Shown: piece after piece, positions 3,690-55,006 of the stretch
Layout of the letters: every line of letters starts with the position of its first letter
How positions within the stretch are numbered: position 1 is the first letter of the stretch
Assembly (NCBI GenBank): GCA_013314775.1
Contig: JABUFB010000019.1
Coordinates: 3,189-67,188, forward strand
Direction: 5' to 3'
Source of the DNA: Armatimonadota bacterium
GTDB lineage: Bacteria > Armatimonadota > Zipacnadia > Zipacnadales > JABUFB01
Length of the DNA stretch: 64,000 bases
Made by a program: the position numbers and the translations under genes
Notes under the pieces: generated by a model
Databases searched by the model: none
What the model was told of the DNA's origin: nothing
What the model saw: only the letters and a program-made list of their open reading frames with translations

Positions 3690-4046
3690 CCTTCGCGTCC
3701 GGCAGGACGCCCGGCCGCAGGCCTCTAGCCCCGGGTTTCAACCCGGGGCGTCTGCCGCCCCCTTCGGGGGCTCTTATAATCTCGAAGGAGGGGCCTGATT
3801 CCACCAGCTGACGCTGGTGGCAAGAGACTGCCGCCCCTTCGGGGCTGGACGGCAAGGGCCTGTCGAGCGGGACGCTCGACCTTTGCGTCCCTCAGGACGC
3901 CCGGCCGCAGGCCTCTAGCCCCGGGTTTCAACCCGGGGCGTCTGCCGCCCCCTTCGGGGGCTCTTATAATCTCGAAGGAGGGGCCTGATTCCACCAGCTG
4001 ACGCTGGTGGCAAGAGACTGCCGCCCCTTCGGGGCTGGACGGCAAC
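3690..4046. repeat. tandem direct repeat: two copies of a 190-bp unit containing a 100 percent identical 150-bp core with four GC-rich hairpins
   Basis: Read directly. aggacgcccggccgcaggcctctagccccgggtttcaacccggggcgtctgccgcccccttcgggggctcttataatctcgaaggaggggcctgattccaccagctgacgctggtggcaagagactgccgccccttcggggctggacggcaa occurs at about 3706-3856 and again at about 3896-4046. Hairpins are ccccggg/tttcaa/cccgggg, gcccc/ttcg/ggggc (UUCG-type loop), ccaccag/ctgacg/ctggtgg and gcccc/ttc/ggggc. Each copy carries TATAAT followed 7 nt later by AGGAGG. Confidence 0.85.
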
Positions 4047-5040: not shown

Positions 5041-7965
5041 TTACTCCTCGGGGCGAATCAGCCAGATCGTGCCCGATGAATCCGTGCCGCCGCTAGATGC
5101 GACCTCGGCCACGAGTTCGTACTTCGCATCCGCGCGGTATTCCGGCAGCCTGATTTCGTAGACGTTCCCGCTGCTGCCACTCCCCGCCCAGCCACGGTGG
5201 ATGTCCTCGGAGATCGCCTGCCCGTTCTCCAGAAGGCTGACCTTGCGGATCACCAGCCCGTGCGCGCCCCGGTCATACTGCCACTCAACCTGCCACGCGC
5301 CCCCCTGCTTGATGTGCGCGGTGACGTCTAGCGTGAGGGTCACGCCCTCCTCGCTCATCTGCGCCGGCTCCCAGCCCCCGGCTTTCGCATAAGTGCCTGA
5401 GAGCAGGCCGAACTTTGTACCCGGGGGAAGGGCAGCAGGCGTGTCAAGACTGTCCTTCAATGCCTCCAGTTCCCCCGCAAGAGCAGACAGTTGGTCAGCC
5501 TGGGTTTCGAGGCGAGTCGCGTCGCCGACGTAGGCTCCGCAGTTGTCGATGAAGTACTTATACTCCAGGGCCCTTGTCCTTGCCTCGTCCCCGAGAGCCC
5601 GCAGCCGGGCCACTATTTCCGCCAGCGTTGCCTGCCGCTGTGCAAGCTCACCCTCGCCCAGAGGCTTGCGCAGTGCGGCGTACTGGGAGGTGATGTCCCG
5701 GAAGGTGTTCACCTTCCGGCCCGCATACTCGGCCAGCGCGAAGCCCAGATCGGCAGCCCGCAGGGTCAGGTGATTTGTCCCGGCGAGTTCATTCAGCCGC
5801 CTCACCTTGCCCCGGGCCGCCTGCATGGCCTCGATGAGAGCGCCGGCACTGGCCGCCGCCACCGGGGTCTTCAGGCCGAACTCTCGCATGACGTCGCGCG
5901 GGGCCGTCCAGAGAATGTCCGTGGTGAGGCGCCAGTTGCGCCACATTCCTGCCGCCCCCGTGCGCGCCACCGGCTCGCGCAGGCCCTGAGCAACGAGGCC
6001 GGGAGCCTCCTGCGCGCTTGTTCCGAGCCACTGGTCCGCAAAGCGCCGGTCGAACTCGCCGGTACTGCTGCTGCGCGGGTTCCAGGAACAGTCTGCCGCG
6101 AACAGCAGGCCATACATGCTGTTCTCGATGAGCGCCCCGTGCATGAACTCCCAGGTTGTGCAATAAGCTCCGCCGCAACCCGCCTCGGCCCCTGCGCGGT
6201 AGAAGCCCCGGATGCCCCGTATCGTTGTCTCGTAGTCTGGCCAGATCACCGAGTAACTCACCACTGCCGGGCAGCAGTGCACATCCTTGAACCCCGCCTG
6301 CTGGTACTGCTTGAGAGTCGGGTATTCCGCCGGTCCGTGGTAGATCCACTCGGTGGGGATGCAGTCCTTTTCCATCTGGTCGCTGTACTTGAGGGTCATG
6401 TCGCTCAGTTCCGGTGTGGGGCCGTGGTGGGATGGCCAGAACATCATGGTCCGCCCGTGCTTCTTCACAAGCTGGTTTAACTTGTTCATATGCTCGGCGT
6501 ACAGGGCGCCCATGCCGCCCGCTTCCACTTTCGCCTTGCACCGCGGGCACTTGGCGAACCCGAACTCGAACTCGTCGGCGCCGGTGTGGATGAACTCGGT
6601 GGTCGGGAAGGCTTCCACAAGCTCGGCGAACACGGTGTCCAGGAACTTCCAGGTCTCGGGCTCGCTGGTGCAGAAGACCCAGGGGTCGCCGGCCTCCCGC
6701 ATCTTCTCCATCTCTGGGTGCCGCAGTACCGCCGACGCGTGCCCGAGGGCCTCGAACTGGGGAATCAACTGCATGTGGTACGGGCGGGCGTATTCCGTAA
6801 GCTCCCGGGCTTTGTCGTGGGTAAAAGTGCCCTCGCGTCCGAGGAATGGGAATGCCCTGAAGCGGAAGTCGTCCTCCATGTAGAAGAGCAGGCCATTGAT
6901 CTTGCACCTTGCAAGGGCGCGGATCATCCGCTTCACATACTCCACGTTCACGCTCTGTCCCCGGGCGATGTCGTACTGGATAATCCGGTATGGGAAAGCC
7001 GGCCAGTCTCGCACGCTGCAGCAGGCGACCCCCGGGCCCCCCTCAGTCTTCCGGGCCATCTGGCCGAGTGTGATCGCCCCGTACAGGATGCCCCGAGCGT
7101 CCCGGGCTCTGACCTGCGCGCCGTCGACGGATACCTCCAGCGCGTAGGCTTCAGGACTGTCCGAGGGCACGTTGGGATCTGCTTTCAGCAGCAAGAGAGA
7201 ATTGCGGGGCGCATCCCCCTTCTGCGGGTCCAGCGCACGCACGCCCAACTCCAGCCCGGTGCGCTCCTGGATCAACGCCTGCAGCTCCCGGGCAGCGAAG
7301 GCCGCGTCCTCATCGCCATCCGCGTGGCAGATAACGGTATCCGCCTCGAGCGCGAAGTCCCCGCCGGTCAAGTCAATCTGCTGCGGCAGGGGGATCAGCG
7401 ATACGCCGGCATCAGTCAGCGCCGCCGCGGCCTTCATCTGCCGGGTGGATTCCTCGTCCATCACTGTCGCCAGTGCGAACAGGTCCCTGCCCGTGCCGTA
7501 ACGGTAGGAGGTCCACCCGTCGCCGGCCACGGTCGCGCCGACGAAGATGTCGATGTATCCGCGCCGCCGGTCGTCGGCGGTGATTCTTTCAGTCAGGTCG
7601 ATAGGGGCCTGGTTGGTCCGGTTCCATTCGTCCCCGTCGGTGACAATGGGGCCCTCATAGATAAGCTCTCCATCGGCGCTATCTCGCCGCAGCAGCAACT
7701 GGTAGCTGGTGCCCTTCCCGCTGTAAGCGACAACTGCCCCGATGCGCAGCCAGTACCCGGCCGCCTCCTGTTCGGGCACAGGAAATCGCATTGGCACCCA
7801 GTTGCCGGACTCGATGAGCCCGAGGTGTCCTTCGCCCATCGGGGTTCGGGCCAAAGGGGCGAGACGCTTTGCGTATTCGCCGAACTCTGCCCAACGCTCC
7901 GACTGGCATTGTCCGACACTTGTCACCAGCAGTGCCACCATCAATAGGGACCCGCAAATCCGCAC
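5041..7965 (-). CDS. GH20 beta-N-acetylhexosaminidase family protein with C-terminal extra domain
   Basis: GH20b-like N-domain (YALEVSVDGAQVRARDARGILYGAITLGQM), then the catalytic TIM barrel (VRDWPAFPYRIIQYDIARG ... IHTGADEFE = H-x-G-x-D-E). A long C-terminal region follows. The track ORF extends to 8064. The likely start is GTG 7965 (MRICGSLLMVALLVTSVGQCQS signal peptide) or ATG 7941. Confidence 0.75.
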   Translation of the reverse strand: MRICGSLLMVALLVTSVGQCQSERWAEFGEYAKRLAPLARTPMGEGHLGLIESGNWVPMRFPVPEQEAAGYWLRIGAVVAYSGKGTSYQLLLRRDSADGELIYEGPIVTDGDEWNRTNQAPIDLTERITADDRRRGYIDIFVGATVAGDGWTSYRYGTGRDLFALATVMDEESTRQMKAAAALTDAGVSLIPLPQQIDLTGGDFALEADTVICHADGDEDAAFAARELQALIQERTGLELGVRALDPQKGDAPRNSLLLLKADPNVPSDSPEAYALEVSVDGAQVRARDARGILYGAITLGQMARKTEGGPGVACCSVRDWPAFPYRIIQYDIARGQSVNVEYVKRMIRALARCKINGLLFYMEDDFRFRAFPFLGREGTFTHDKARELTEYARPYHMQLIPQFEALGHASAVLRHPEMEKMREAGDPWVFCTSEPETWKFLDTVFAELVEAFPTTEFIHTGADEFEFGFAKCPRCKAKVEAGGMGALYAEHMNKLNQLVKKHGRTMMFWPSHHGPTPELSDMTLKYSDQMEKDCIPTEWIYHGPAEYPTLKQYQQAGFKDVHCCPAVVSYSVIWPDYETTIRGIRGFYRAGAEAGCGGAYCTTWEFMHGALIENSMYGLLFAADCSWNPRSSSTGEFDRRFADQWLGTSAQEAPGLVAQGLREPVARTGAAGMWRNWRLTTDILWTAPRDVMREFGLKTPVAAASAGALIEAMQAARGKVRRLNELAGTNHLTLRAADLGFALAEYAGRKVNTFRDITSQYAALRKPLGEGELAQRQATLAEIVARLRALGDEARTRALEYKYFIDNCGAYVGDATRLETQADQLSALAGELEALKDSLDTPAALPPGTKFGLLSGTYAKAGGWEPAQMSEEGVTLTLDVTAHIKQGGAWQVEWQYDRGAHGLVIRKVSLLENGQAISEDIHRGWAGSGSSGNVYEIRLPEYRADAKYELVAEVASSGGTDSSGTIWLIRPEE

Positions 7966-36198: not shown

Positions 36199-36649
36199 TC
36201 TAGAACACCTCGGAGAACTTCATTGCGGTGGTGCGGGCAGGGCGGTGTCCCCACCCGACATGCGGGCTTCGGAGCGCCCGCAGAGCCTGTTCCAGCACCG
36301 AGGGACGAATCCCTCCTGTGGCTGGGGATGGTTCCGCGGGAAGGCCATAACCGTCACCAGAACGGAGCTTCAGTTTCGCCGGTGCTTCCACGTGGTCTGA
36401 TCGCTGGTCGGAGCGTATCCGGCTTTGACCAGCAGGAGTGCGGTCCCATTGCCCGCAGAGCGGGCGAGAGCCCATAGCCTGGGGCGGAAGCCTCCGGATC
36501 CACTTCCGCCGGGGGCCGCAGGCGGACGGCTCCTGCCGGAGCCTGACCGCGGCCCGGCTCCAGCACCAAGGGTACCGGGGCGCCGGCCACACACGAGGCC
36601 GGCACGCCTCTGGCCAAACCGCTGCGCCTGCGCGCCTGCGCGAAAAAGT

Positions 36650-36678
36650 TTGCCTTTACACGCCGGATCGTGTATAGT
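36650..36678 (+). promoter_or_regulatory. sigma70-like promoter (TTGCCT-N17-TATAGT) driving the cold-shock gene, with about 140-nt 5-prime UTR
   Basis: ttgcctttacacgccggatcgtgtatagt read directly. A long leader is typical of csp mRNAs. AGGAGG lies 10 nt before the ATG. Confidence 0.5.
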
Positions 36679-36818
36679 AAGCGAGTTCCTGTCGGCGATA
36701 GCGGGCAGGGACTCTCAAAGGCTAGGGTGCTATTGACCGACTGGACAAGACGCTTCTCCTCCAGTAGGGGCTGCAAGTGCGTCACTAGTCAACACTGGTA
36801 GGAGGTGCGTTTGTCAAA

Positions 36819-37022
36819 ATGGCAACAGGCACCGTCAAATGGTTCAACGACGATAAGGGTTTCGGTTTCATCGAGACGGAGGGGCACGCAGACGTCTTCG
36901 TGCACTTCTCTGCTATCACCGGCGAGGGCTACCGCAGCCTGAACGAGGGCGCGAAGGTCGAGTTCGACATCGTCCCTGACGCCAAGGGCCCCCGGGCAGC
37001 CAACGTCACCGTTATCGGCTAA
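36819..37022 (+). CDS. cspA: cold shock protein, CspA family
   Basis: [33 protein letters not shown]: RNP1/RNP2 motifs. 67 aa. Confidence 0.9.
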
Positions 37023-37045
37023 GAATCCGGAAAAGCAGTCAGGAA

Positions 37046-37080
37046 ACAGCCCCACCGAACACCACGGTGGGGCTGTTTTG
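37046..37080 (+). terminator. rho-independent terminator after csp
   Basis: acagccccacc-gaacacca-cggtggggctgtttt: GC stem plus T-run, 24 nt after the stop. Confidence 0.55.
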
Positions 37081-37219
37081 TACGCGCGGGCGTCTGGTTT
37101 CCCGCGCCCCGTCCCTTTGGGCGCGGCCCCTTGCCGCTGCCTGCGCCGGTGTCTATAATGGCTCAAACCCATGTTCGCGGCTCCCTCGGGGAGCCGTGTT
37201 CTTGCTAGCGGAGACGGTA

Positions 37220-37828
37220 ATGATTGCTCTCATCGACTATGGAATGGGGAATCTCGGCAGCGTCCACAAGGCGCTCCTGAGGGTGGGCTGCGAGGCGGAG
37301 ATCACCGACGATCCCGACAAGATATCCCGCGCGAAAGCCGTGGTTCTGCCCGGCGTGGGCGCCTTCGACGACTGTGTGAAGAACCTCGTGGATCGCGGCC
37401 TTGATGTGGCGGTGAAGGAGGCCGTCAACGCCGGCAAGCCATTCCTCGGGATCTGTCTGGGCTTGCAGATGCTTTTCGACAGCAGCGAGGAAGGCGGCAA
37501 GTACCCCGGTCTGGGCATCGTGCCGGGGAAGGTCGTCCGGTTCACCCACGACTTGAAAATCCCTCAGATTGGCTGGAATCAGATCTCCATCCGCAAGCAA
37601 GCGCCACATTTTGCAGGTGTGCCGGACGGTTCGTGGGTCTACTTCGTACACTCCTACTACGTGGTTCCGGAAGACGAGTCGGTGGTGGCGACGGTGACTA
37701 ACTACGGCTACGACTTCGTCAGCGCGATCTGGCAAGATAACGTCTTTGCGACCCAGTTCCATCCCGAGAAGAGCCAGGCCGTGGGGCTTCGGATTCTGGA
37801 GAACTTTGCGAATGTGGTCAACGGTTAG
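37220..37828 (+). CDS. hisH: imidazole glycerol phosphate synthase glutaminase subunit HisH
   Basis: MIALIDYGMGNLGSV, GICLGLQ catalytic Cys, HPEKS. Confidence 0.9.
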   Translation: MIALIDYGMGNLGSVHKALLRVGCEAEITDDPDKISRAKAVVLPGVGAFDDCVKNLVDRGLDVAVKEAVNAGKPFLGICLGLQMLFDSSEEGGKYPGLGIVPGKVVRFTHDLKIPQIGWNQISIRKQAPHFAGVPDGSWVYFVHSYYVVPEDESVVATVTNYGYDFVSAIWQDNVFATQFHPEKSQAVGLRILENFANVVNG

Positions 37829-37898: not shown

Positions 37899-38627
37899 TT
37901 GCTCGTCATTCCAGCAATCGATATTTCGCAAGGCCAGTGTGTTCGCCTGCAGCAGGGCGACATGAACCGAAAGACCGTGTTTGGCAACGATCCTGCCGAA
38001 GTCGCAAAGAGGTGGGCAGATTGCGGAGCCGAGGTCATTCACGTGGTTGATCTTGACGGTGCGGTGGGGGGGAGCTCCGCCAATCTCGAAGCCGTCAAGG
38101 CTATCGTCGAGCGCGCCGGAGTGCCCGTGGAACTCGGCGGAGGATTGCGGACGCTCGAGGATGTCGGCCGCGTCCTGGACATGGGGGTCCAGTGGGCGAT
38201 CATGGGCACCGCCGCGCTGGAGAACCGAGACGAGTTGGCGGCATGTCTCGACCAGTTTCCCGACCGGATCATCGTCGGCATCGACGCGCGGGACGGCCGG
38301 GTGGCGGTGAAGGGGTGGGTAGAGACCAGCGGAGTCAGCGCCATCGATTTGGCCCGAGATGTGGCAGAGATGGGCGTGAAGCGCGTGATCTTCACCGACA
38401 TCGCCACCGACGGCATGCTGGCCGGACCGAACCTCACCAGCACCCGGGCCATTGCGGAAGCCGCGCCACTCGAGGTCATCGCCTCCGGCGGCGTCACCAC
38501 CCTCGACGATATCCGCGCGGTTCGCATGCTCGAACCCTCCGGGGTTGTGGGTTGCATTGTGGGCCGGGCTCTATACAGCGGCACCATTGACTTGACCGAA
38601 GCGATCGCGCTTGCGACAGAGTTCTGA
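37899..38627 (+). CDS. hisA: ProFAR isomerase HisA
   Basis: TTG start. IPAIDISQGQCVRL, VVDLDGA, FTDIATDGM, ASGGV motifs. Confidence 0.9.
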   Translation: MLVIPAIDISQGQCVRLQQGDMNRKTVFGNDPAEVAKRWADCGAEVIHVVDLDGAVGGSSANLEAVKAIVERAGVPVELGGGLRTLEDVGRVLDMGVQWAIMGTAALENRDELAACLDQFPDRIIVGIDARDGRVAVKGWVETSGVSAIDLARDVAEMGVKRVIFTDIATDGMLAGPNLTSTRAIAEAAPLEVIASGGVTTLDDIRAVRMLEPSGVVGCIVGRALYSGTIDLTEAIALATEF

Positions 38628-38686: not shown

Positions 38687-40000
38687 ATGGAGGACAAACG
38701 AATGACCATTGTCAAAGTCGAGCGGCTGTCCGACCTCACCCCCGAACGCCGGCAGGCAATCCTGAGCCGCTCCATGGAGGAGATTGGGGACGTCTTCGAC
38801 AACGTGCGCCAGATCTGCGAGGACATCCGCAAGCGCGGAGATCAGGTCTCTCTGGAGCATTACAAGAAGCTCAAGGAAGATATCGTGCCGGCCGATCTGA
38901 AGGTGACCCGCGCTGAGATCGATGCCGCTTACGCACAGGTTGGCGACAAGGTCGTCGAGCAACTCAGGTTCGTGGCCGCAAACATCGAGAAGTTCCACCG
39001 CGCCCAGTTCGAGCGAGACATGTGGTCTGTGGAGATTGCTCCGGGCATACTGGCCGGGCGCATCACCCGGCCCATGGACAGTGCGGGCTGCTACATCCCG
39101 GGGCGCCAGGCGAACTACCCCTCCAGCGTTCTCATGACCATCATCCCGGCCAAGGTGGCGGGGGTGCAGCAGATCGTGGCCTGCACTCCGCCCGACACCG
39201 GTATGGTCGCCAACAACACCTCACTGGTTGCCGCGGACATCGCCGGTTGTGCCGATATCTTCAAGATCGGCGGCCCGTGGGCAGTTGCGAGTATGGCCTA
39301 TGGTACCGATCTGGTACCCAAGGTGGACAAGATTGTGGGACCGGGCAACAAATATGTGACTGCTGCGAAAATGGCGGTCTTCGGCTCCGTTGCCATCGAC
39401 TCCCCAGCGGGCCCCAGCGAGATCTTGATTTTGGCCGACGACACCGCTAACCCCGAGTGGATTGCGATGGATTTCTACTCGCAGGTCGAGCATGACCAGG
39501 ACGCCGCCGCGGTTCTCGTCACCCCGGACGCCGGTCTTGCACAGGCTGTTGCTGACGCGATCAATGACAAGTTCAAGACCATCGCCCGGCGCGAGATACT
39601 CGCCCCGGCGCTGGAGCACAATTCGGCGATTCTCGTGGCAGACACCATGGATGACGCTATCGATTTCACCAATGAGTACGCCACCGAGCATCTCGAGGTG
39701 GTCACCCGCGACCCCATGCTCATGCTCCCGCGCATCAAGCACGCGGGCTCCATCTTCCTGGGGCCATACGCCCCGGTACCGGTAGGCGACTACGCCTCCG
39801 GCACCAACCACGTCCTGCCTACCGGCCAGTGCGCGCGGATGTTCAGTGGCCTGTCTACCGATGATTTCATCAAGAAGCCGACCTGGCAATTCCTGTCCAG
39901 GGATGGCCTGAAGCACCTGTCCGAGGCCGTTCTAGTTCTTTCCGAGGCCGAGGGCCTGCCGTTGCACGGCGAGACCGTGCGGGTGCGGCTGGAGGAGTAG
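38687..40000 (+). CDS. hisD: histidinol dehydrogenase HisD
   Basis: 437 aa. IVGPGNKYVTAAK, DSPAGPSEIL, SQVEHD, HLE motifs. Confidence 0.9.
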   Translation: MEDKRMTIVKVERLSDLTPERRQAILSRSMEEIGDVFDNVRQICEDIRKRGDQVSLEHYKKLKEDIVPADLKVTRAEIDAAYAQVGDKVVEQLRFVAANIEKFHRAQFERDMWSVEIAPGILAGRITRPMDSAGCYIPGRQANYPSSVLMTIIPAKVAGVQQIVACTPPDTGMVANNTSLVAADIAGCADIFKIGGPWAVASMAYGTDLVPKVDKIVGPGNKYVTAAKMAVFGSVAIDSPAGPSEILILADDTANPEWIAMDFYSQVEHDQDAAAVLVTPDAGLAQAVADAINDKFKTIARREILAPALEHNSAILVADTMDDAIDFTNEYATEHLEVVTRDPMLMLPRIKHAGSIFLGPYAPVPVGDYASGTNHVLPTGQCARMFSGLSTDDFIKKPTWQFLSRDGLKHLSEAVLVLSEAEGLPLHGETVRVRLEE

Positions 40001-40041
40001 GAGGGACGGCTGGCGCCCCAATAACTGTGAGGTGACTGCGC

Positions 40042-41184
40042 GTGATTACCCGCATCTACATCGACAACTACAAGTGCTTCAGCAACTTCGAGTACCGCCC
40101 GGCTGCGAATGAGCTGTTGCTAGGGAGAAATGGTGTCGGCAAATCATCCGTGTTCGACGTTCTGAGGATGCTGCGTGGCCTAGTGTACGATGGCACCTCC
40201 ATAGCAGACTCTGACTGCCTGGGCTTGGGCACGCGCACCATCTGGGACACACGCGAAAATCAGTTGTTCGAGCTCGAGGTCGCCGGGAATGGCGGAGCCT
40301 ATCACTATTCGCTCAGCATCGAGTATGATGAGGAGAAAACACGGTCCCGGATAGGCGTCGAGGAGCTGAAGTTCAGCCCGAGGGACTCCGCAGAACTGCG
40401 CCTGTTCCGGCGTGAGCGCGACGAAGGTTGGCTGTTTCGCGACAACGGGAGCGACGGACCGGAGGTGAGGTTGGATTGGAATCGATCCGGTCTCTTCTCG
40501 ATCCAGCCACGACACGACAACACACGGCTGACTTGGTTCAAGGAACGCTTGGGCCAGACACACTGCATTCGCGTTGTACCCGCCCAGATGTCCGGATGGA
40601 CTGAACGCGAAGACGACGCACCAGACTCAACACTCTCAAACCTGTCTTCGTGGTATCGACACCTCAACCAGGAGGAGCCTCGTGTTCGAGACGCCCTCCA
40701 CCGCTCGCTGCAGGCCGTGATAGACGGATTCTCAACTTTCTCGTTGAGGCGCGTCACTGAGGAAGGCAGGCGCCTAGTCGTGGAACTGGAGTCGGAGGGC
40801 AGCCCGCACACCTACGACCTAAGCCAGCTTTCGGACGGGCAACGTGCCCTTATTGGGCTCTATACGCTCAGCGCATACGCGTCACAGTACCCTTCGAGCG
40901 CAGCCAAGTCGGTAACGCTGTGTGTGGACGAACCCGAGAACTTCGTGGCGCTCTCAGAACTCCAGCCCTGGATCCACGAGATGGAGGACTGCGTGGATGG
41001 CGAGCGAGTCCAATTGCTGCTTGCCTCCCACCATCCGGAGTTCATCAACCACTATGCGCATACAAGCGCGGTGCTTCTGTACCGCGTGAGAGGGGGGCCA
41101 ACCCGGGTAAGGGCTTTCGATGGGGCCAACCCAGACGGCTTGGCACCTGCCGAGATTGTGGCACGGGGGTGGGAAGATGAGTAG
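40042..41184 (+). CDS. AAA_21/AAA_15-type ABC ATPase (OLD/AbiL/PARIS-AriA-like)
   Basis: GTG start. MITRIYIDNYKCFSNFEYRP...GRNGVGKSS (Walker A), LSDGQRALI (signature-like), LCVDEPENFV (Walker B), ASHHPEF (H-loop). 380 aa. 41 nt after hisD. Confidence 0.7.
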   Translation: MITRIYIDNYKCFSNFEYRPAANELLLGRNGVGKSSVFDVLRMLRGLVYDGTSIADSDCLGLGTRTIWDTRENQLFELEVAGNGGAYHYSLSIEYDEEKTRSRIGVEELKFSPRDSAELRLFRRERDEGWLFRDNGSDGPEVRLDWNRSGLFSIQPRHDNTRLTWFKERLGQTHCIRVVPAQMSGWTEREDDAPDSTLSNLSSWYRHLNQEEPRVRDALHRSLQAVIDGFSTFSLRRVTEEGRRLVVELESEGSPHTYDLSQLSDGQRALIGLYTLSAYASQYPSSAAKSVTLCVDEPENFVALSELQPWIHEMEDCVDGERVQLLLASHHPEFINHYAHTSAVLLYRVRGGPTRVRAFDGANPDGLAPAEIVARGWEDE

Positions 41185-41710
41185 GGGGGCGGAAGTGGTT
41201 CTGCTGTGTGAGGACAAGCAGCACGATTGCTTCTTTCGTCGATTGCTCAAGCTACTAGGGTACGGGCGCATCCGAGTCAGGGAAGACTATCCTAAGGGGG
41301 GAGGAGAGGCCGGCGAGGGTTTCGTGCGTCGGGAGTTCGCGGCGGAAGCCAAATGGCAGCGGCGCAGAGCGTCCAGAATGAAGTGCGGCCTGTTGGTGGT
41401 CATTGACGCAGACTCTCGCAGCGTAGACCAGCGGCGCAACGATGTGCTGGGTCCGCTCGATCCACCCCGCGCCGCCAACGAGAATATAGCCATCTTCGTG
41501 CCGAAGCGTAACATCGAGACCTGGATCGCCTACCTGAAGGACGGCGTCGCGGTGGATGAAGTCTCGCCGTACCGGAGGTACCCTGGCTGCGAGAGCAAAT
41601 GTCATCCCGCTGTTGATCGCTTTCTCGAAATTGCCCGGACGGGGGTCCCCTCCGACTGCCCGGACTCGCTTTGCAGAACCATTCGAGAAGAGTACCCGCG
41701 TCTGCCCTGA
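41174..41710 (+). CDS. small TOPRIM-like protein (DUF4276/RloB-like) partner of the ABC ATPase
   Basis: ATG overlaps the ATPase gene by 11 nt (translational coupling). Translation MSRGAEVVLLCEDKQHD... fits the hhhhxEGxxD TOPRIM start. LLVVIDADSR supplies a DxD. 178 aa. Followed by about 250 bp of lower-GC, ORF-free DNA. Confidence 0.5.
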   Translation, partial: KMSRGAEVVLLCEDKQHDCFFRRLLKLLGYGRIRVREDYPKGGGEAGEGFVRREFAAEAKWQRRRASRMKCGLLVVIDADSRSVDQRRNDVLGPLDPPRAANENIAIFVPKRNIETWIAYLKDGVAVDEVSPYRRYPGCESKCHPAVDRFLEIARTGVPSDCPDSLCRTIREEYPRLP

Positions 41711-41957
41711 TCACCGACGGGACTGCCCGATTCCACGGCGCTTGCTTGAGTTCGGCATTCCGAACCGAGATTGAGGAAAGCAATATTCCGCTCATTTGGT
41801 CGTCACGGCCGAGGACGTTGGAAGCCCTACCGCAAGAAGCTTGAGCTGTCACGGAAGCGTACTTCGACGCCCAATGCGGGCGGCTCTCTGCGTCACCGGA
41901 GAACACTGGCGTCTGAGCTATGTGGAACATCCAGCGCCTGCCATCTGACGAACCGTG

Positions 41958-43115
41958 CTATTCCTCTTCCTGACGTGACCGCGCCTGGACCATGCGCGCG
42001 ATGGCCTGATGGTCCCACCAGATGTCCTGGAGGATCTGGCCGGCGATCTGCTGGGCACTTGGCAACGTTTGTGCGGACAGCCACGGCTCGATGTTTGGAC
42101 GGGTGATTGAAGCCCGGAATACCATGACATCCTGCTCTCGGCCGCTGTCGTCGGGAACGCGGGCAAGAGCGCGAACAATGAGGGTACCCAGTCCCTGTTC
42201 GGTGCGCATGGCATTGACACCGGCATAGAATGCGGCGATGAGCAACTCGTTCTCAAGTCGTCCGAGGTCGGAGGTGGGCGGCATTGAGATGGTCAGGATG
42301 CCGAGCCCGGCGTACTCGTCGAAGGCCATCGCGGTGGCTTTCGCGGACAGGCCGCCTGCCCCCGCGCGTTCGAGATGGAGCTGTGACATGATCCGCCGGT
42401 CTACATCGCTGGCCACGGCGGACGACGCCCGCTGCACTCGCTGTCCCTGAGGGCGCTGAACGGGTGGATTCGCGCTTGAGCCGCCCACCGGACTGCGATA
42501 TTGCGGCCCGCTTGCGGTGGGCACGGCAGCCGAGCCAAGAGGGGGCCGCGTTGTGTCCGGCAGCGGGCCCGCCGGCCCCGGAGCCACGGGCGCGGATACA
42601 CCTTCCGCCTGCGTGGCGACCTCCGCATCCGTGGCGGTCGGCGTATATTCCAGCTCCTGGGCGCCGCCACCATTCGCGGCCCTGACGAGAAGGAGACCGA
42701 GAATCGGTATCATCAGGATGCCCAGTATGACCGCGACGATCACCCACGTGGGAGTCCAAGCCTTGCGGGCAGGGGCTGGAGCTACGATCGGGGGGGACAC
42801 CACTGGGGCCTCATCACCGCGGATTGCATGACGCCGCGCTGCGGCAAGGCGCTCCATGACGGCTCGGTCGAAGTTCAGGTCCAGCGCGCGCTCATAGAAA
42901 TCCACCGCTTTCGGCCAGTCGCCGGTTCCCGCGTACGCGTCACCCAGCACCGCCCACGCGGCGCCGCTCTCCGGGTAGCGTTCGACAATACTCTCACACA
43001 GGCCAACGGCGGAGTCGAACTGGCTGGCACGTATGAAGGTCTGCGCCTGAGCGATCTCTTGCTCCAATGTAGCGTGCGACCGGGTCTCTTCGGACAAGTA
43101 CCACACCTCCGCCAA
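41958..43115 (-). CDS. TPR-repeat membrane-anchored protein
   Basis: N-terminal TPR helices (AWAVLGDAYAGTGDWPKAVDFYERALDL). Single TM (WVIVAVILGILMIPILGLLLV). Pro-rich linker and C-terminal globular domain. Confidence 0.5.
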   Translation of the reverse strand: MAEVWYLSEETRSHATLEQEIAQAQTFIRASQFDSAVGLCESIVERYPESGAAWAVLGDAYAGTGDWPKAVDFYERALDLNFDRAVMERLAAARRHAIRGDEAPVVSPPIVAPAPARKAWTPTWVIVAVILGILMIPILGLLLVRAANGGGAQELEYTPTATDAEVATQAEGVSAPVAPGPAGPLPDTTRPPLGSAAVPTASGPQYRSPVGGSSANPPVQRPQGQRVQRASSAVASDVDRRIMSQLHLERAGAGGLSAKATAMAFDEYAGLGILTISMPPTSDLGRLENELLIAAFYAGVNAMRTEQGLGTLIVRALARVPDDSGREQDVMVFRASITRPNIEPWLSAQTLPSAQQIAGQILQDIWWDHQAIARMVQARSRQEEE

Positions 43116-44934: not shown

Positions 44935-45331
44935 AGGTACGGGCCGCTCTGATCTGGGGTATGTCAAGGGCCCGGCGGAAGTGTACAGCCGCATCTCGAC
45001 CGTAGCCCCCGCAGGGCGCCAGCCATTTGCCAGAAGGCTCAGCTGGTGGGATCAGGCTCTGCGACCGCGGATGAGCCCCGAAGAGGTGCTAGAGATTCTC
45101 TGGGTCTGCCGCCCCTTCGGGGCTCTCCATTTCCATGTGCGCCGATCCCACGGGTTCCGTTGCGCTTCGCCTCCACCCGTGGCTATCAGCTGCCACCCGC
45201 TATGCGGGCTGTGAGGCAACGCCCATGCTGACTCTCGGTTGCTGATCGGGCGCCGCACGGTCCTCGGCCGCCTGTCTCCCCTTTGGGGCTTTCCCGCGAT
45301 GGAGAGGCGGCAGGGTTGCTGCCGTGGTCCC

Positions 45332-54807: not shown

Positions 54808-55006
54808 TGGGCTGCTCTGTCGCCCCTTGCGGGGGCTCAGAGGGCAGCCCGGGGCCGATCCCAGGGGTTCCGGTCCGCTTCGCGGCCTCCACCCCCTGGC
54901 TATAGGCGGACGGCCCCTCCGGGGCCTTACGACAAGATGCGGTGCTGACTTGTCCCCTACGGGGCCTTACGATAGAGACGGGGCAGCGTCGACCGGGCCT
55001 GCGCGG

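Follow-up and report, generated by a model that had tools for sequence, protein, structure and literature searches.

A two-gene ABC ATPase/Toprim-like cassette behind hisD in an Armatimonadota bacterium: a candidate defence module of the HEC-01/Mad3-Mad4 type

Directly behind the histidinol dehydrogenase gene hisD of an Armatimonadota bacterium lie two overlapping genes, one for an ABC ATPase of 380 amino acids (aa) and one for a partner of 177 aa, which raises the question of what kind of system this pair is and what it might do behind a biosynthetic operon. The locus belongs to a stretch of 64,000 nucleotides (nt) of contig JABUFB010000019.1 (metagenome-assembled genome GCA_013314775.1, positions 3,189 to 67,188, forward strand), which we term the window and by whose own numbering all unlabelled coordinates are given; loci of other genomes carry L numbers. 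An earlier note, made from the sequence of the window alone, had described the pair as a candidate anti-phage module of the split OLD-family kind (AbiL, PARIS, RloA/RloB) that was inserted after hisD. With a probability of roughly 60%, we read the pair as a self-contained, accessory candidate defence cassette of the HEC-01/Mad3-Mad4 type, in which a sensor ABC ATPase would control a Toprim nuclease.

The ATPase and its small Toprim-like partner

The ATPase gene (40042-41184, + strand) starts with a GTG codon 9 nt downstream of a GAGG ribosome-binding site, which lies in the 41-nt spacer to hisD (40001-40041, + strand) and is backed by the sequence and by conservation relative to the related locus L005. 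Its product scores above the Pfam cut-offs for both AAA_21 (PF13304; 6.8e-17, 62.9 bits versus 27) and AAA_15 (PF13175; 3e-10, 40.7 bits versus 32.1). The motifs of an ABC ATPase follow in order on the + strand: Walker A GRNGVGKS (40123-40146), Q74 of the Q-loop (40261-40263), the signature LSDGQ (40828-40842), Walker B TLCVDE (40915-40932), and the H-loop SHH (41026-41034), all of them invariant across 49 homologues. Judged by its sequence, the protein is an ABC ATPase of the AAA_21/AAA_15 branch, as the earlier note had proposed.

The AlphaFold2 model of the ATPase (pLDDT 93.5) displays a beta-rich insert with six beta strands at residues 73-143 and a short helical insert, while a long coiled coil is missing. 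The predicted structure is thus that of a Rad50/SMC-like head devoid of the long coiled coil. Foldseek accordingly places Rad50 on top (1.4e-13), followed by Septu and retron PtuA (2.5e-13), GajA (2e-11), and Thermus OLD (1e-10), while a sequence comparison with the Protein Data Bank (PDB) yields no match at E<=0.01. Among the PADLOC profiles, HEC-01A is the best match (2e-20 over residues 2-357), and four of the top five rows are HEC-01A models (2e-20 to 3.2e-15), of which three match over nearly their full length. Behind HEC-01A come, at about 1e-14, PDC-M07A, AbiLi (2.9e-14), and a generic AriA/AAA_21 hit (AriA at 3.1e-14); the closest family among these scores 1.1e-14, so that HEC-01A leads by six orders of magnitude, and the AriA match shares identical coordinates with the generic AAA_21 model. 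Further down, mad3 is matched at 1.5e-9, and the NCBIfam model MAD3 is reached at 3.3e-12 with 46.3 bits against a cut-off of 420. A weak similarity to RecF/SMC_N is found at the N-terminus, where the RecF match covers the P-loop region only (18 bits versus a cut-off of 172).

The small gene (41177-41710, + strand) overlaps the ATPase gene by 8 nt (ATGAGTAG) and is predicted to encode a metal-dependent nuclease related to DUF4276, HEC-01B, and Mad4. Its start at ATG 41177 is backed by the N-termini of 45 homologues and by a G-rich ribosome-binding site. A longer open reading frame of 196 aa, starting at 41120, was dropped because the homologues begin at the equivalent of 41177. The protein is identical to NCBI entry HPY44_20790. 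The translational coupling described in the earlier note thus stands, while its size of 178 aa and overlap of 11 nt are to be replaced by 177 aa and 8 nt.

Taken by itself, the small protein finds no Pfam or NCBIfam match at E<=1 and matches HEC-01B no better than E 0.021-0.037, over residues 53-117 only. Its family is a large one, made up of stand-alone proteins some 180 aa long, many of them cyanobacterial: 91 matches are retrieved in a single-sequence search, 1,424 clusters at 90% identity in a profile search, and 1,788 clusters at 50% identity in an exhaustive search, 621 of these below 1e-30. One member is labelled DUF4276 in UniRef. When 46 family members are scanned singly against the Pfam and PADLOC models, HEC-01B is matched by 20 of them (best E 1e-5), mad4 by 17 (5.5e-6), DUF3226 (PF11536) by 15 (2.4e-4), and DUF4276 (PF14103) by nine (3.9e-6). 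The DUF4276 gathering score of 30.2 bits is unreached by any tested member, the best relative, P0044, attaining 27.7 bits (E 3.9e-6). DUF4435 (the AriB domain), RloB, Toprim_OLD, AriB, and AbiLii do not appear among the Pfam and PADLOC matches listed for the 46 members. At the level of the family, homology to DUF4276 and HEC-01B is supported by these profile matches.

The alignment of the 46 sequences reveals as invariant E12, D13, R62, D77, D79, P109, R111-N-I-E-T115, and E128. In the gene (+ strand), E12-D13 is encoded within 41204-41221, D77xD79 within 41396-41416, and the motif PKRNIETW at 41501-41524. The AlphaFold2 model (pLDDT 92.8) has the alternating beta-alpha-beta-alpha-beta-alpha-beta-alpha order expected of a Toprim domain, in which E12-D13 directly follows strand 1 (residues 3-11) and D77xD79 directly follows strand 3 (residues 70-75). 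The hallmarks of Toprim domains are a conserved glutamate where beta-1 ends and a DxD motif behind beta-3, and both DUF4276 and RloB are placed in the Toprim superfamily with the same Glu/DxD motifs (PMC12065111). In its model, the small protein carries the Glu/DxD motif where a Toprim domain has it, and it is this placement, and not structural similarity, that supports a Toprim fold. Foldseek against the PDB returns generic three-layer alpha/beta matches (best E 0.023; a retron Eco2 chain at 0.038), which speak neither for Toprim nor against it, and the top match in BFVD is an RloB-like protein (E 6e-3, probability 0.94). Neither the family profile against PDB sequences nor the PHROGs collection gives a meaningful match, and hhalign of the family against one GyrB sequence having a Pfam Toprim match is not significant (probability 0.7%). 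In our reading, the small protein represents a sister family of DUF4276/HEC-01B that is divergent, has no model of its own, and keeps the Toprim-type acidic site intact.

The quoted ATPase motifs and the stretches VVLLCEDKQHD and LLVVIDADS, on which the earlier note had based its TOPRIM/DUF4276/RloB-like assignment, are all found in the sequence. Of that assignment, the conserved acidic residues hold; DUF4276 is matched below threshold and in relatives only, and RloB is not among the profile matches listed. The profile searches suggested at the time come out divided, with both ATPase families above cut-off, DUF4276 unmatched by the window protein, DUF4276 and DUF3226 matched by relatives, and DUF4435 missing from the matches listed. 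The closest models for the pair are HEC-01A/B and Mad3/Mad4 instead of the split OLD-type systems named there.

An accessory pair resident behind hisD and the exchange of its alleles

Wherever the locus is intact in the genomes inspected (L001, L002/L003, L004, L005, L017/L018, L019, L026, and L027), the two genes either overlap or directly adjoin each other, and no conserved third gene stands beside them there. Both genes are under purifying selection, with ratios of nonsynonymous to synonymous substitution (dN/dS) of 0.13-0.18 (ATPase) and 0.27-0.37 (small gene) versus 0.04-0.12 in the flanks. Since dN/dS stays below 0.5 throughout, both proteins are functional, and purifying selection on both, together with their membership in large families, argues against chance reading frames. 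The pair also decays jointly: at L015 7117-7397, and likewise in L016, a frameshift disrupts the ATPase close to the C-terminus, and the small gene breaks off after some 20 codons (MSERGGAQVVILCE...).

Outside the clade that carries it behind hisD, the pair occurs across phyla in unrelated contexts. It lies between a MarR gene and a ceramidase gene in L001, after gyrB in L019, and among sugar-metabolism genes in L017. In Microcoleus (L002/L003), it adjoins GmrSD_N and HEPN genes, and in L004 (3507-6525) it makes up, together with a GmrSD_N-HNH gene, a single block of three overlapping genes. This block splits a liv-type ABC transporter operon, with the gene for the periplasmic binding protein on one side and those for the permeases on the other. 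These unrelated contexts in other phyla rule out a link to histidine biosynthesis. Nine of ten hisD loci in genome contigs lack the pair, although L006, one of the nine, ends about 90 nt past hisD and is uninformative. An empty site is provided by L021, which has 505 bp of unrelated DNA where L026 has the 1.8-kb pair, between the same orthologous flanks, namely hisA-hisD and a downstream GFO-type gene (69% aa identity).

In the window, the 1,916 bp from 40042 to 41957 have a G+C content (GC) of 0.597, the minimum among equal-sized windows in the 64 kb (mean 0.643, standard deviation 0.017; about 2.7 standard deviations below), and GC at third codon positions is 0.71 in the pair versus 0.77-0.86 in most neighbours. 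Given the low GC, the empty site in a relative, and the recombinant allele described below, the pair is accessory at the 3' junction of hisD.

The pair is nevertheless resident at this junction throughout a clade, as four related assemblies (L005, L020, L027, and L026), whose hisD proteins are 91-97% identical to that of the window, carry it 41-45 nt after hisD. Relative to L005, the flanking genes other than the downstream TPR gene show protein identities of 92-97% and a synonymous divergence (dS) of 0.34-0.60, while the ATPase is 69% identical (dS 1.49) and the small protein 54-56% (dS 1.39); dS values above about 1 are saturated. The change is abrupt. DNA identity to L005 steps from 88-96% to 45-75% at 40173, 131 nt into the ATPase gene, and recovers near 41912. 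Moreover, the host genes group the window with L005 and leave L026 outside (hisD dS 0.45 versus 0.65-0.90), while the C-terminal third of the ATPase and the small gene group L005 with L026: here, L005 and L026 are 95% identical in the ATPase third and 70-71% in the small protein, compared with 65% and 53-56% between the window allele and either of them. The preference of informative sites correspondingly shifts from window+L005 (274:126:78) to L005+L026 (109:15:16 and 119:44:35), a topology incongruence with chi2 125.5 and p 5.5e-28. Plain fast vertical evolution of the pair is ruled out by the identity step at 40173 and by the conflicting trees.

Thus, the segment from about 40173 to 41912 (+ strand) is a divergent allele that the window acquired by recombination, and the pair is mosaic among the related assemblies. 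Within it, ATPase residues 45-145 (40174-40476, + strand), comprising the loop after helix 1 and the beta-rich insert 1, are hypervariable and star-like: the three syntenic alleles are 46-53% identical, and informative sites are split 49:40:46. This segment is a candidate trigger-sensing surface. The window allele is seen in one assembly only, and a metagenome-assembly chimera at the conserved junction is formally conceivable. Of the insertion after hisD that the earlier note had postulated, the accessory character is retained, since the comparison of junctions it called for uncovers the empty site of L021 and shows that the pair is not universal at hisD; a one-off recent insertion does not agree with residence in the whole clade.

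Upstream, hisH (37217-37828), hisA (37899-38627), and hisD (38687-40000; PF00815, 1.4e-155) form the his cluster on the + strand, with hisD as the conserved left anchor of the cassette. A promoter/terminator scan finds neither a sigma-70-like promoter nor an intrinsic terminator between hisD and the pair, and expression by read-through from the his operon is therefore likely. Downstream, a 247-bp non-coding spacer (41711-41957) separates the small gene from the convergent TPR gene (41958-43115, - strand). The arrangement of two + strand reading frames between hisD and a TPR gene, and the roughly 250 bp of lower-GC non-coding DNA behind them, were described correctly before: the spacer has a GC of 0.591 against the window mean of 0.643. 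It forms the right part of the exchanged segment and is poorly conserved, with 64-77% identity to L005 that rises again at about 41912; scans of it for Rfam families and terminator-like sites come back empty, and its folding is unremarkable (z -0.57). The whole window is free of tRNA genes, so the pair is not part of a tRNA-linked island.

Several further features of these regions were observed. The TPR protein, Pro-Ala-rich and of membrane type, is more diverged from L005 than the remaining flanks (82% identity, dN 0.11, dS 0.70), and DNA identity drops to 70-75% at 42500-42800 within its gene. Farther downstream, the window has about 300 bp more than L005 between the GFO-type oxidoreductase and CN-hydrolase genes (44935-45331). 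This stretch holds short GC-rich palindromic repeats and, as further copies occur in the window at 3793-3846, 3983-4036, and 54854-54903, may be an element resembling repetitive extragenic palindromes or miniature inverted-repeat transposable elements (REP/MITE). A GC-rich palindrome similar to the window repeat also lies at L015 7200-7225, just past the point where the small gene loses its frame. In L021, about 1.2 kb between hisH and hisA (537-1796) are not present in the other loci, and in L026 an HNH endonuclease gene (6354-6884) is found just past the GFO-type gene downstream of the pair. Ahead of the window's his cluster, a weak match to the cspA thermoregulator RNA (36644-37079; RF01766, 29.5 bits versus a gathering score of 78, E 1.4e-4) covers the leader and coding region of a cold-shock gene at 36819-37022. 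The best promoter-like site of the region (37131-37198; TTGCCG-17-TATAAT) is followed directly by a 10-bp GC-rich hairpin and, lying just upstream of hisH, could be the leader or attenuator of the his operon.

Proposed function and rival explanations

For the candidate defence cassette, a mechanism can be proposed by analogy with better-known systems. ATP-driven dimerisation would make the ATPase both sensor and gatekeeper: the variable surface of insert 1 would recognise an infection cue, and the ATPase would then license its Toprim-like partner, whose Glu12, Asp77/Asp79, and Glu114 would bind Mg2+ or Mn2+ for the cleavage of a nucleic acid (tRNA or DNA). As happens in PARIS, OLD, and Gabija, such cleavage would halt either the invader or the cell it has infected. 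We infer from these analogies that the two proteins form a complex and that the partner is a nuclease, and likewise its substrate, the trigger, and a benefit against phages. The hypervariable, recombining insert fits the sensor role of the ATPase. Raised dN/dS, hypervariability of insert 1, a recombinant allele, the lowest GC of the window, and an empty site together make up a defence-like population genetics, and the GmrSD-type neighbours in L002/L003 and L004 as well as the homology to Mad3/Mad4 likewise count towards defence.

A number of observations weigh against a role in defence. The neighbours of the pair in the window are the his genes and those for TPR, GNAT, GFO/IDH/MocA oxidoreductase, and CN-hydrolase proteins, i.e., housekeeping genes and not a defence island, and the link to the his operon persists throughout a clade. 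No homologue is found in phage or plasmid collections by tblastn with the window protein and a cyanobacterial relative. The window's small protein itself remains below every curated threshold (HEC-01B at E 0.021, Pfam none at E<=1), and its fold searches are not significant, neither in the PDB (best 0.023) nor in BFVD (best 6e-3). Finally, in the only test of an HEC-01 representative, no protection was seen against any of the phages used (10.1101/2024.01.29.577857).

That negative test would also suit two other explanations. The pair might be a selfish, toxin-antitoxin-like addiction cassette, with a Toprim toxin restrained by the ATPase, which persists by post-segregational killing or hitch-hiking and brings no benefit against phages. 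Its compact, overlapping two-gene layout, its accessory distribution and recombination, and the joint loss of both genes in the decayed copy would all agree with this, as does the Pfam description of AAA_21 as a putative AbiEii/type IV toxin-antitoxin domain. Addiction modules, however, are common on plasmids and phages, where the collections searched hold no homologue, a sensor-like insert that is hypervariable more typically goes with trigger recognition, and the related Mad3/Mad4 contribute to defence. We consider a purely selfish cassette unlikely, bearing in mind that abortive-infection systems are often toxin-antitoxin-like and that addiction and defence are not exclusive readings. Alternatively, the pair could act on host DNA as a genome-maintenance or cell-cycle module, like RecF-RecR, Rad50-Mre11, or the archaeal Cran1, which shows that OLD-family ATPases can serve purposes other than defence (PMC12796447). 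Rad50 as the best structural match of the ATPase, the weak N-terminal RecF/SMC_N similarity, and an operon-like arrangement with the his genes, unbroken by promoter or terminator and kept behind hisD across the clade, count in favour of this explanation. It accords poorly with a pair that is missing from most Armatimonadota hisD loci and from the empty site of a relative, has decayed in one copy, is scattered over phyla in unrelated contexts, and diverges by 31-46% at the protein level, with exchange of alleles, between flanks that differ by 3-7%; the RecF match, moreover, is confined to the P-loop region. A maintenance function is likewise unlikely.

Least probable of all is true membership in PARIS (AriA/AriB), AbiL, RloA/RloB, or the split OLD nucleases. 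The secondary PADLOC matches of the ATPase to AbiLi and AriA and the RloB-like fold match of the partner in BFVD point in this direction. HEC-01A, however, outscores AriA and AbiLi by the six orders of magnitude given above, the partner has 177 aa compared with about 35 kDa for AriB, none of the 46 family members has DUF4435, RloB, Toprim_OLD, AriB, or AbiLii among its listed matches, and the ATPase lacks a sequence match to any solved structure at E<=0.01. We regard this explanation as largely refuted.

Modules that combine an ABC ATPase with Toprim (OLD, Gabija, PARIS, and Mad3/Mad4 of MADS) are a recurring design of bacterial immunity, and the small two-gene version of the HEC-01 type has no demonstrated activity so far. 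The design is a known one, and the locus alone reveals no new mechanism. What it does reveal is a large sister family of DUF4276-like partners (about 1,800 clusters), which current Pfam misses and which at best grazes PADLOC models. It also indicates that such a cassette can persist for long at one chromosomal site behind a housekeeping operon, while its parts, chiefly the ATPase insert, are swapped between lineages, the pattern expected of an arms-race sensor. The natural allele series (window, L005/L027, and L026) should be useful for asking what the insert recognises. Tentatively, the candidate defence cassette may even stand for a large, unmodelled branch of stand-alone ABC-ATPase/Toprim immune modules, with specificity set by a recombining, hypervariable insert 1, a fixed 'landing pad' behind hisD in this clade, expression by read-through from the housekeeping operon, and alleles swapped by homologous recombination, for which the flanking genes and the conserved 131 nt at the start of the ATPase gene would serve. 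If this possible extension is true, the locus would open the first way to the function of the HEC-01 class, whose testing has been negative to date.

Comparison with known systems

Classes 1-3 of the OLD family comprise P2 Old, GajA, and the retron Eco8 effector (PMC10568477). Like these, the pair would join an ABC ATPase to a Toprim nuclease with Glu/DxD metal-binding chemistry, which is predicted for the window partner, and the structural matches of its ATPase include GajA and Thermus OLD. In contrast, an OLD protein carries its Toprim domain at the C-terminus of one polypeptide, whereas the two domains are found here on two genes, Toprim_OLD is not matched, and neither a UvrD-like helicase nor a retron or reverse transcriptase adjoins the pair. 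It is therefore not a member of OLD Classes 1-3.

[quoted passage not shown] AriB, of about 35 kDa, contains DUF4435, which is not detected in the window partner with its 177 aa. AriA, of about 55 kDa, has coiled-coil inserts, in contrast to the beta-rich and short helical inserts of the 380-aa window ATPase. A DUF4435-containing AriB beside AriA, which defines PARIS, does not show up among the matches listed.

The Mad3/Mad4 module of MADS likewise combines an AAA/ABC ATPase with a DUF4276-type partner, and both the mad3 and the mad4 profiles are matched. Deletion of mad3 or mad4 weakens MADS defence, and the methylase gene mad5 tolerates deletion only together with that of mad2 or mad3 (10.1101/2023.03.30.534895). 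By implication, self-toxic restriction involves the ATPase module. In MADS, however, Mad3/Mad4 is accessory to a larger system, while no methylase, helicase, or other mad gene is found among the identified flanking genes of the pair. The window ATPase also stays far below the NCBIfam cut-off for MAD3 (46.3 versus 420 bits). MADS (Mad1-8) is delimited by the Mad3 equivalog score and by mandatory Mad6-8 nearby, and the pair falls outside on both counts. With the DUF4276 and DUF3226 families, the small protein shares its size range, the Glu...DxD core, and the adjacency to AAA_21 ATPases, and the sub-threshold matches of its relatives span the beta-1 to beta-4 core; unlike them, its family has a PKRNIETW motif of its own.

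[quoted passage not shown] The window pair has the same order of an ABC ATPase gene followed by a small Toprim-like gene. HEC-01A is the best profile for its ATPase, which by these scores is of HEC-01A type, and HEC-01B is the model most often matched by relatives of the small protein. In contrast to HEC-01, the pair stands alone behind hisD and is not embedded in Hma or MADS, and the window's small protein reaches HEC-01B at E 0.021 only, so that PADLOC might not call the system. The pair would work along the lines of PARIS and OLD but does not belong to PARIS, AbiL, RloA/B, OLD Classes 1-3, or MADS, each of which has a defining feature that it lacks; its best place is among the HEC-01/Mad3-Mad4 kind, as a divergent member.

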